Origin: Escherichia coli
GTDB lineage: Bacteria; Pseudomonadota; Gammaproteobacteria; Enterobacterales; Enterobacteriaceae
NCBI RefSeq assembly: GCF_003334305.1
Contig: NZ_QOWS01000011.1
Strand: one strand, 5' to 3'
Length of the DNA: 64,000 bases
Positions 33,835-53,567 of the stretch are shown here, in pieces; positions within the stretch are counted from its first letter, which is position 1, and every line of letters begins with the position of its first letter. The notes below the pieces were generated by a model that was given only the letters and a program-made list of their open reading frames with translations, was not told where the DNA came from and did no database searches. The position numbers and the translations under genes are program-made.

Positions 33835-34251
33835 GTTGTGTTACGTGTTGATTGTGCTTGTTTAATGACATCCAAACTCACAGCGTGGGGCATTGATGGG
33901 GCAAACTCACTCAATTTCTGGTTTAAAATGGAAACCTGATTCTGAAAGTTTTCTGCCATCCACGATCCGTATACGTGATAACCCCCCTGAACATCAGAGT
34001 GTCTCCTTTAACACGCATCACCAGGTCGGTTGTTGTTACGACCACAGACGCAACATTAATATTTTGATAATTTCATCTTATTTGATGTTTTTATTCATAT
34101 TCCGGGCTAGGGAAATAATCAGGCATAATTGTGTCACTGGAATAGAGGTTTCTTGTGGCGCATGTGGAAAGAGCGTCTAAGGACAAGACATTTGCGGCTG
34201 ATAATAAATAAAGGCGCAGCTCGTCGAATGCAAGAATGTGCTGCGTCTGGC

Positions 34252-34731
34252 TCATGGCAATTCATTATTTTCGCATAGCGTCAATGACAAAAATCGACTG
34301 TGTGGATCAAGTTGATAATCAGCAAACGGTTCGCAATCAACGAAACCATGCTTCAAATAAAGTTGATGGCAGGCCGTAAATCCAGCCTGTGTACCCGTTT
34401 CTAAGCTCAGGCGATGAAGGCATCTGTCATGGGCGACCTGCAAAATGTGGCGTAAAATCAGACTGGCGACACCACGACGTAAATAATTAGGCGCGGTACG
34501 CATTGATTTCAGCTCGCCATGTTTATCATCCAGCAACTTCAGCGCACCAATTCCTGCGAGTTGTTCGCCTTCCCATACTGACCAGAATGTCACTGTCGGG
34601 TTACGTAATTTTTGCACATCTAAAGCATGACTGCTTTCGGGGGGAGACTGCTGCAGCATGCCGGAAATATGGTAAGCCACTAATGCTTGCACTGCTGGAT
34701 GGGTGAGATCATCTGTTTTAATCGTGAACAT
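34252..34731 (-). CDS. yedL: GNAT-family N-acetyltransferase YedL
   Basis: 159-aa ORF with acetyl-CoA binding motif (RRGVASLI). Confidence 0.85.
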   Translation of the reverse strand: MFTIKTDDLTHPAVQALVAYHISGMLQQSPPESSHALDVQKLRNPTVTFWSVWEGEQLAGIGALKLLDDKHGELKSMRTAPNYLRRGVASLILRHILQVAHDRCLHRLSLETGTQAGFTACHQLYLKHGFVDCEPFADYQLDPHSRFLSLTLCENNELP

Positions 34732-34841
34732 GACGATTCCGTATTGGTATTATTTTTGCAATATGCCAACAGGTACTGAAATCTTTGTCTAATAGAGATT
34801 TCTTATGACGCAGTATTGTTGATCAATAATCTCCAGGCTTA

Positions 34842-35510
34842 TCAAACAGGTTGAATTAACTCCGCGCCCTGGTTTTTGACATTACCTACCGCGCGCGATA
34901 CCGGGTGCCAGGTGAACTGGTTTGCTGGAACACAGCCACTGGCAGCAATTTCAGAGGCTTATTTACCGCTAATCTCTTGCCGCATCCATTCCCGCGCAGC
35001 TTCTGGCGACAGTACCAGCGGGCGGCGGTCATGAATATCTACCAGACCCTGGTCTGCTGCTGCAGTGACAATTAAAAATCCTTCGGCTTCGTCACCACGC
35101 TCAAACGGTGTGCTACCTATCGCGGCTATAAAAACAGGTTGTCCATCAGCGCGATAGATAAAATAAGGCTGTTTTTTGTCGCCTTCTTTTTTCCACTCAA
35201 ACCAGCCATCGGCAAAACAGATTGCCCGACCATGTTGCCAGAGCGGTTTAAACATACGACTGGTTGCGGCAGTTTCTACGCGGGCGTTAATCAGCGGCGG
35301 TTTATCCCACCATCCGGGAGCATATCCCCAGAAAACCGGATCCAGATGAAGGTGTTCATCACGTTCACTGAGCAGAAGGACTTTGGTTCCCGGCGCGACG
35401 TTGTATCTGCCAATGGGTTCGGGATCATAGGGAATATCGCGTTCAATATCTTCCGCGAGAAGCGCAAGGTAATCTTCACGCGTTTGGGATTGGGCAAAGC
35501 GTCCACACAT
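34842..35510 (-). pseudogene. yedK: yedK (SRAP-family abasic-site processing protein) interrupted by an in-frame TAA at 34959-34961; 183 codons before it, 38 intact codons after it
   Basis: N-terminal MCGRF (catalytic Cys2) and SRAP domain; the frame resumes after the TAA as ASEIAASGCVPANQFTWHPVSRAVGNVKNQGAELIQPV, ending at TGA 34842-34844; 183+1+38 = 222, the remembered K-12 length. Confidence 0.7.
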
Positions 35511-35618
35511 AGAAACCTCCTGAGGTCACACTGAAAAGAATAGGAGAGGGGGCGGGTTAAATCTATGTGATAGAGAGGCAACGATATTCCCGCTGTGGGC
35601 CACAGCGGGAATGAGGGA

Positions 35619-53480: not shown

Positions 53481-53567
53481 GCCCGGATGGTGGAATCGGT
53501 AGACACAAGGGATTTAAAATCCCTCGGCGTTCGCGCTGTGCGGGTTCAAGTCCCGCTCCGGGTACCA
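53481..53567 (+). tRNA. leuZ: tRNA-Leu (UAA)
   Basis: 87-nt match to remembered tRNA-Leu with long variable arm. Confidence 0.95.

Follow-up and report, generated by a model that had tools for sequence, protein, structure and literature searches.

A premature ochre codon in the SRAP-family gene yedK of an Escherichia coli clone

The yedK locus and its premature stop codon

The stretch of DNA analyzed here (the window, 64,000 nt) is identical, with 0 mismatches over its full length, to the reverse complement of positions 2778660-2842659 of the chromosome of E. coli strain A7 (NZ_CP028767.1), whose source was orangutan faeces in the USA. The order of genes around yedK in the window is the standard one (amyA, yedD, yedE, yedF, yedK, yedL, fliE). 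The features of the locus are the following:

34842..35510, minus strand: yedK pseudogene, a frame of 222 codons and the native stop that is broken at codon 184 (translation and gap-free alignment to K-12 b1931)
34959..35510, minus strand: shortened yedK open reading frame, 183 amino acids and TAA (list of open reading frames)
34959..34961, minus strand: premature ochre codon TAA at codon 184, ancestrally GAA (Glu184)
34961, minus strand: mutated base, gene nt 550, G>T on the coding strand and C>A on the plus strand
34845..34958, minus strand: orphaned 38 codons, residues 185-222 (translation)
34842..34844, minus strand: native TGA of yedK (translation and K-12 alignment)
35511..35618, minus strand: undamaged yedF-yedK intergenic region, with the Shine-Dalgarno sequence GGAGG at 35516-35520
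34252..34731, minus strand: intact yedL, encoding a GNAT acetyltransferase (list of open reading frames and annotation)

Translation of the minus strand of 34842-35510 yields 183 residues (MCGRFAQSQ...REWMRQEISGK), a stop, the 38 residues ASEIAASGCVPANQFTWHPVSRAVGNVKNQGAELIQPV, and a second stop. An earlier note, made from the letters of this DNA, had placed the TAA (34959-34961) after 183 codons and had described the frame as open from there to the TGA at 34842-34844, and both the translation and the list of open reading frames reproduce these coordinates exactly. The sum that the note had equated with the length of the K-12 protein (183 + 1 + 38 = 222) is also correct, as b1931 comprises 669 nt, or 222 codons and a stop, and aligns with the window gene without gaps. 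The chance that 38 codons stay open after any stop is (61/64)^38, or about 0.16, and such a run is unremarkable alone. The decisive evidence for an interrupted yedK is homology and not the length of the open tail; 37 of the 38 tail residues match those of K-12.

In the RefSeq annotation (PGAP) of A7, locus AOY58_RS13335 has the same coordinates and is named yedK, with the product "SOS response-associated peptidase" and the pseudogene flag "internal stop." Because this flag is already public, the allele, which we denote E184*, was already known and is no discovery of ours.

Origin and distribution of the E184* allele

We compared codon 184 with that of nine other haplotypes sampled across the range of identity within the species (K-12, E04, CV261, 2015C-3107, GTEN_23, Ec-050, 21F61, MS7163, and E. 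coli C). It is GAA (Glu) in all nine, and the change in the window is therefore G>T at gene nt 550 (window 34961). The earlier note had considered that K-12 and most other E. coli might themselves stop at this codon; GAA is found throughout the sampled haplotypes. The orphaned tail is identical in nucleotide sequence to that of intact alleles. Five assemblies (L021 and L023 to L026) carry an intact yedK in which 668 of the 669 nt are the same as in the window, the sole difference being nt 550. The reconstructed parent protein (P0016), with Glu184 and otherwise identical, is found on 19 public contigs. Between L021 and the window there are 0 mismatches in the 108-nt yedF-yedK intergenic region, including GGAGG. 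By these comparisons, neither the gene nor its ribosome-binding region has decayed beyond nt 550. Both the mutation and its ancestral state are direct observations, and the note's reading of a nonsense mutation holds, given a native length of 222 codons, intact alleles that differ at one base, and a single close-knit lineage of carriers.

Relative to K-12, the window gene has four changes to T within 18 nt (nt 550, 558, 564, and 567). The last three are synonymous variants of a common haplotype. We considered a multi-base event or an import around the stop and rejected it, because the combination of G550 with T558, T564, and T567 is already common. We searched 5,426 complete E. coli genomes with a 55-mer centered on nt 550, a length at which each 28-base megablast seed must include the variant. 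The G550 version of the 55-mer matches 1,310 genomes; at ≥99% identity it matches 128, including E. coli C. Therefore, nt 550 alone is new.

The T550 version of the 55-mer is present in 2 of the 5,426 complete genomes, A7 and GF131, as a direct survey of other genomes, which the earlier note had proposed, reveals; both belong to the same lineage. On two other haplotype backgrounds, T550 has no match among the complete genomes. The survey thus covers 28-base exact seeds on three haplotype backgrounds, and an independent T550 on a background outside these three could be hidden from it. GF131 was obtained from chicken meat in Switzerland, and PGAP calls an internal stop in its yedK too. It differs from the window by 9 single-nucleotide polymorphisms (SNPs) across the first 53.6 kb, up to a prophage at tRNA-Leu, which amounts to a divergence of 1.7e-4 per site. 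GF131 is an independent isolate of the A7 lineage. Four of the nine SNPs lie in two pairs about 10 nt apart (12625/12636 and 44738/44748), which suggests short recombination imports or multi-nucleotide events and not independent point mutations. A third near-complete genome with the allele, GCA_902810225.1, is identical across 6.5 kb. Among NCBI, ENA, and Logan read-set assemblies, 80 contigs and 111 index blocks contain the exact 183-aa product, and all 24 of the carrier contigs that were inspected have the same gene neighborhood. E184* is inherited in one clone that has spread over hosts and continents.

The same data bear on the idea that the TAA is an error of sequencing or assembly. The difference is one base, as such an error might be, and it is a substitution and not an error in homopolymer length. 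The same base occurs in three independent near-complete assemblies (A7, GF131, and GCA_902810225.1). The recovery of the exact product from so many contigs across NCBI, ENA, and Logan (about 80 to 110) argues that it is not a sequencing error, and we regard an artefact as extremely unlikely.

The E. coli genome acquires substitutions at about 2-4e-7 per site per year, and a stretch of 669 nt would thus change once per few thousand years. At these rates, the divergence between A7 and GF131 suggests that the allele is decades to a few centuries old, which is a rough estimate. The earlier note had taken the intact tail to imply a recent mutation. The recency stands, but the tail is weak evidence for it, as an intact tail by itself gives no tighter an upper limit on the age than several thousand years; a stronger argument is the narrow, clonal range of the carriers.

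The segment removed from the SRAP domain

The full-length product of yedK is a SRAP-family protein that shields abasic sites in single-stranded DNA through a thiazolidine cross-link formed by Cys2. On the intact K-12 protein, the Pfam SRAP domain (PF02586) covers residues 1-211 and the whole 214-position model (E = 5e-52). The 183-aa product reaches 421.8 bits against NCBIfam NF007413 (cut-off 349), over profile positions 1-183 of 222. The suggestion in the earlier note that Cys2 and the SRAP core are retained is right for the catalytic residues and wrong for the domain, of which about the last 28 residues are lost. The open reading frame begins with MCGRF, and Met1 and Cys2, the nucleophile, are invariant in 53 homologues. 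The product also carries the active-site residues Asn75, Glu105, and His160, as well as Arg77, Thr149, and Arg162, which bind DNA, all in columns that are ≥90% conserved in the 53-homologue alignment, and its residues 1-183 are identical to those of P0016. In addition to these residues, Trp67 and Trp68 precede the stop. The truncation removes most of helix 182-191, strand beta12 (199-203), Arg206, Asn210, Val211, and the conserved Val204 and Val208. The product thus lacks beta12 and the (W/F)xPV..V.N segment of a complete SRAP domain; the yedK of the window is a SRAP member by descent, and its translated product is an incomplete member.

In crystallographic work on YedK, five of its twelve strands (beta1, beta2, beta7, beta8, and beta12) make up a flat sheet by which the N-terminus and Cys2 come to lie in the DNA groove; on the 3′ side of the lesion, phosphates and sugars are contacted by Arg206, Asn210, and the amide of Val211 (PMC6821365). 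An AlphaFold2 (AF2) model built with the 53 homologues has a mean pLDDT of 93.6, with values of 97-98 in the tail. It contains exactly twelve strands, the last of which spans residues 199-203 and is preceded by helix 182-191; the topology of the sheet and the positioning of Cys2 by beta12 are taken from PMC6821365 and not from the AF2 coordinates. In the papers on YedK that we consulted, we found no mutagenesis of Arg206, Asn210, Val211, or beta12.

Conservation of the lost segment can be observed directly. In 64 full-length homologues (32-58% identity), the information content is 2.32 bits per column for residues 198-211 and 2.12 for residues 212-222, compared to 1.99 for residues 1-183, and the tail is nearly gap-free. 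The 33 best-conserved positions include Val204 (94%) and Val208 (89%). Across ten E. coli alleles, dN/dS is 0.075 for codons 1-183, 0.17 for codons 185-222, and 0.10 overall. As far as sequences can tell, the tail is an integral, selected part of YedK. Synonymous diversity of yedK, measured between the window and the nine other alleles, is high (pS of 0.12 for the whole gene and 0.19 for its last 38 codons), which may be due to recombination around the nearby flagellar/variable region.

Could the 183-aa YedK still fold and shield abasic sites, perhaps less tightly, so that E184* is a functional short allele? All catalytic residues, and all residues whose alanine mutants abolish binding to single-stranded DNA, precede position 184. 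Because the mutationally defined residues are all kept, some residual cross-linking activity is possible. The product still exceeds the NCBIfam cut-off, and the E184* lineage is widespread. However, the Pfam domain extends to residue 211, and the AF2 model shows the lost segment as ordered; this segment includes a strand of the Cys2 sheet and three DNA contacts. The tail is also conserved like the rest of YedK in the 64 homologues, is never absent from them, and shows purifying selection within E. coli (dN/dS of 0.17). Among the 150 best representatives, we found no convincing natural SRAP form that ends near residue 183. The 26 of these 150 that match from the native start and end before residue 205 were considered as a short class and set aside, since they look like fragments, frameshifted products, or high-identity N-termini joined to unrelated sequence. 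We consider a functional short allele improbable.

Loss of YedK function is likely, as predicted from the conservation of the tail, the purifying selection on it, and its place in the structure (PMC6821365 and the AF2 model). A single transversion (G>T at gene nt 550) turned Glu184 (GAA) into an ochre codon and left the rest of the gene and the ribosome-binding site unchanged. Translation would then end after residue 183, so that the catalytic residues would stay and about 28 residues at the end of the SRAP domain would go. The resulting product is probably misfolded or strongly impaired, which would make the lineage yedK-null or nearly so.

Suppression by a tRNA, or programmed read-through of the ochre codon, would still yield full-length protein, and the intact downstream frame would indeed allow it. 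Against this, the 64-kb window contains five tRNA genes, and an ochre-suppressing UUA anticodon occurs in none of them; its tRNA-Leu carries the anticodon UAA, which reads UUR. Both release factors recognize the stop codon UAA, which leaks less than the other two in E. coli. We know of no recoding signal for ochre in this species. Read-through or suppression is, in our judgment, very unlikely.

Loss of yedK in E. coli and comparison with known systems

The gene yedL starts 110 nt downstream of the native stop of yedK and 227 nt downstream of the new one. With the untranslated gap widened from 110 to 227 nt, polarity on yedL is conceivable. A consensus-based scan of the minus strand of the intergenic region for promoters and terminators gave nothing informative on a yedL promoter or on polarity.

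The DNA directly 3′ of yedK is a hot spot of structural variation (window 34826-34844, and about 33835-34841 for the yedK-fliE interval; compared in L002, L005, and L018 to L026). Homology between genomes ends 16 nt past the yedK stop (34826), at the stop itself beside a TnpB/InsQ gene, or at nt ~437 of yedK. Between yedK and fliE, there is yedL alone in the window and yedL with yedN and intG remnants in K-12; other genomes have a porin-ybcM-ybcL-emrE block without yedL, or nothing, with yedL deleted. Variable elements also lie elsewhere in the window. Positions 1-2834 are the edge of the yersiniabactin high-pathogenicity island, with ybtS running off the start of the window and a tyrosine integrase gene (1335-2597) beside tRNA-Asn (2759-2834). 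The prophage of GF131 at tRNA-Leu (53481-53567) is of lambdoid type, with integrase, RepO, and replicative helicase genes (L009:21698-32000), and the corresponding site in A7 (~53567) is empty.

In 1,111 of the 5,426 complete genomes, a rearrangement junction cuts yedK after about residue 142-146 (gene nt ~437), while ~78% of the complete genomes keep a full-length yedK match. Because of this shared junction, about one-fifth of complete E. coli genomes have no intact yedK. The junction, for example in YDC107 (L005:5051-6306), adjoins a fragment of an HTH gene, an IS200/IS605 tnpA, and ybcM, ybcL, and emrE. A 153-aa yedK product was initially a candidate for an amber allele at Gln154 and was rejected; no complete genome has it, and the contigs show instead a deletion of the yedK 3′ end and yedL. 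In a study of phage defense by Brig1 (PMC11078745), a strain with yedK deleted was made and used without effect; this is the only report that our search of the literature for yedK pseudogenes or deletion phenotypes turned up.

These losses raise the question of whether inactivation of yedK has been repeatedly favored, with E184*, the junction found in ~20% of genomes, and the yedK-yedL deletion as parallel losses and the stop codon selected and not drifted. Independent losses of the gene have followed at least three routes, namely, nonsense mutation, rearrangement (1,111 of 5,426 genomes), and a deletion that includes yedL. Contigs with E184* also outnumber those with its exact intact parent (80 versus 19), which fits a benefit but fits hitch-hiking in a successful clone as well, and contig counts reflect the sampling of clones. 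Intact alleles, in contrast, are under strong purifying selection (dN/dS of 0.10) and full-length yedK is retained in ~78% of complete genomes. The other two kinds of loss are side effects of structural changes at the hot spot just 3′ of yedK, and E184* has not recurred independently on the two other haplotype backgrounds surveyed. Adaptive loss is, we think, quite improbable, and so is the driver that could be imagined for it, in which stable DNA-protein cross-links would be costly, or would restrain mutagenic translesion synthesis, in some host-associated niches. Given this selection on intact alleles and the origin of the other losses at a rearrangement hot spot, drift or hitch-hiking is the simpler account, and we infer that E184* is selectively neutral. 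The loss of YedK function would presumably be tolerated because the gene is dispensable in E. coli.

Taken as a whole, we suggest, with a probability of about 0.88, that the yedK of the window is a young, lineage-specific pseudogene that arose by G>T and has probably lost its function. As such, E184*, already annotated as a pseudogene, is an unexceptional allele of a dispensable gene, with little import beyond correct annotation. It is also a natural truncation of yedK, likely null as judged by its sequence, in a wild multi-host clone of E. coli. A7 and a repaired derivative could form an isogenic pair for the role of YedK in vivo, and the same pair could probe the need for the SRAP C-terminal strand in folding or cross-linking. 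That about one-fifth of complete genomes are without intact yedK tempers the importance to be expected of the abasic-site shield under ordinary conditions, and it is a more useful point, at the level of populations, than E184* itself.

One close reference for the window allele is K-12 YedK (b1931, YP_025310.1), an orthologue in the same yedE-yedF-yedK-yedL position. The two genes align without gaps and differ at 21 of 669 nt, and the N-terminus and catalytic residues are identical. K-12 has GAA at codon 184 and a product of 222 aa, whereas the window allele has TAA and encodes 183 aa at most. Structures of the K-12 protein are available (PDB 2ICU, 6NUA, 6NUH, 6KBS, 6KCQ, and 8D2M). The genomes with the intact sister allele (L021 and L023 to L026) differ from the window downstream of the gene, where the porin-ybcM-ybcL-emrE block takes the place of yedL and homology stops 16 nt past the yedK stop. 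The junction-truncated yedK, such as that of YDC107, resembles the window allele as a natural, heritable loss of the C-terminus, and PGAP annotates it as a partial pseudogene. It differs in that the loss is due to a structural junction, which also removes Thr149, His160, and Arg162, and in that no intact yedK codons follow downstream. The SRAP domain of human HMCES (PDB 5KO9 and 6OE7) belongs to the same family and is distant but still detectable by sequence (E ~1e-15). HMCES has additional C-terminal regions compared to YedK. The two proteins share the Cys2 thiazolidine cross-link to abasic sites (PMC9436759), and HMCES serves as the functional reference for what is lost in the E184* lineage.
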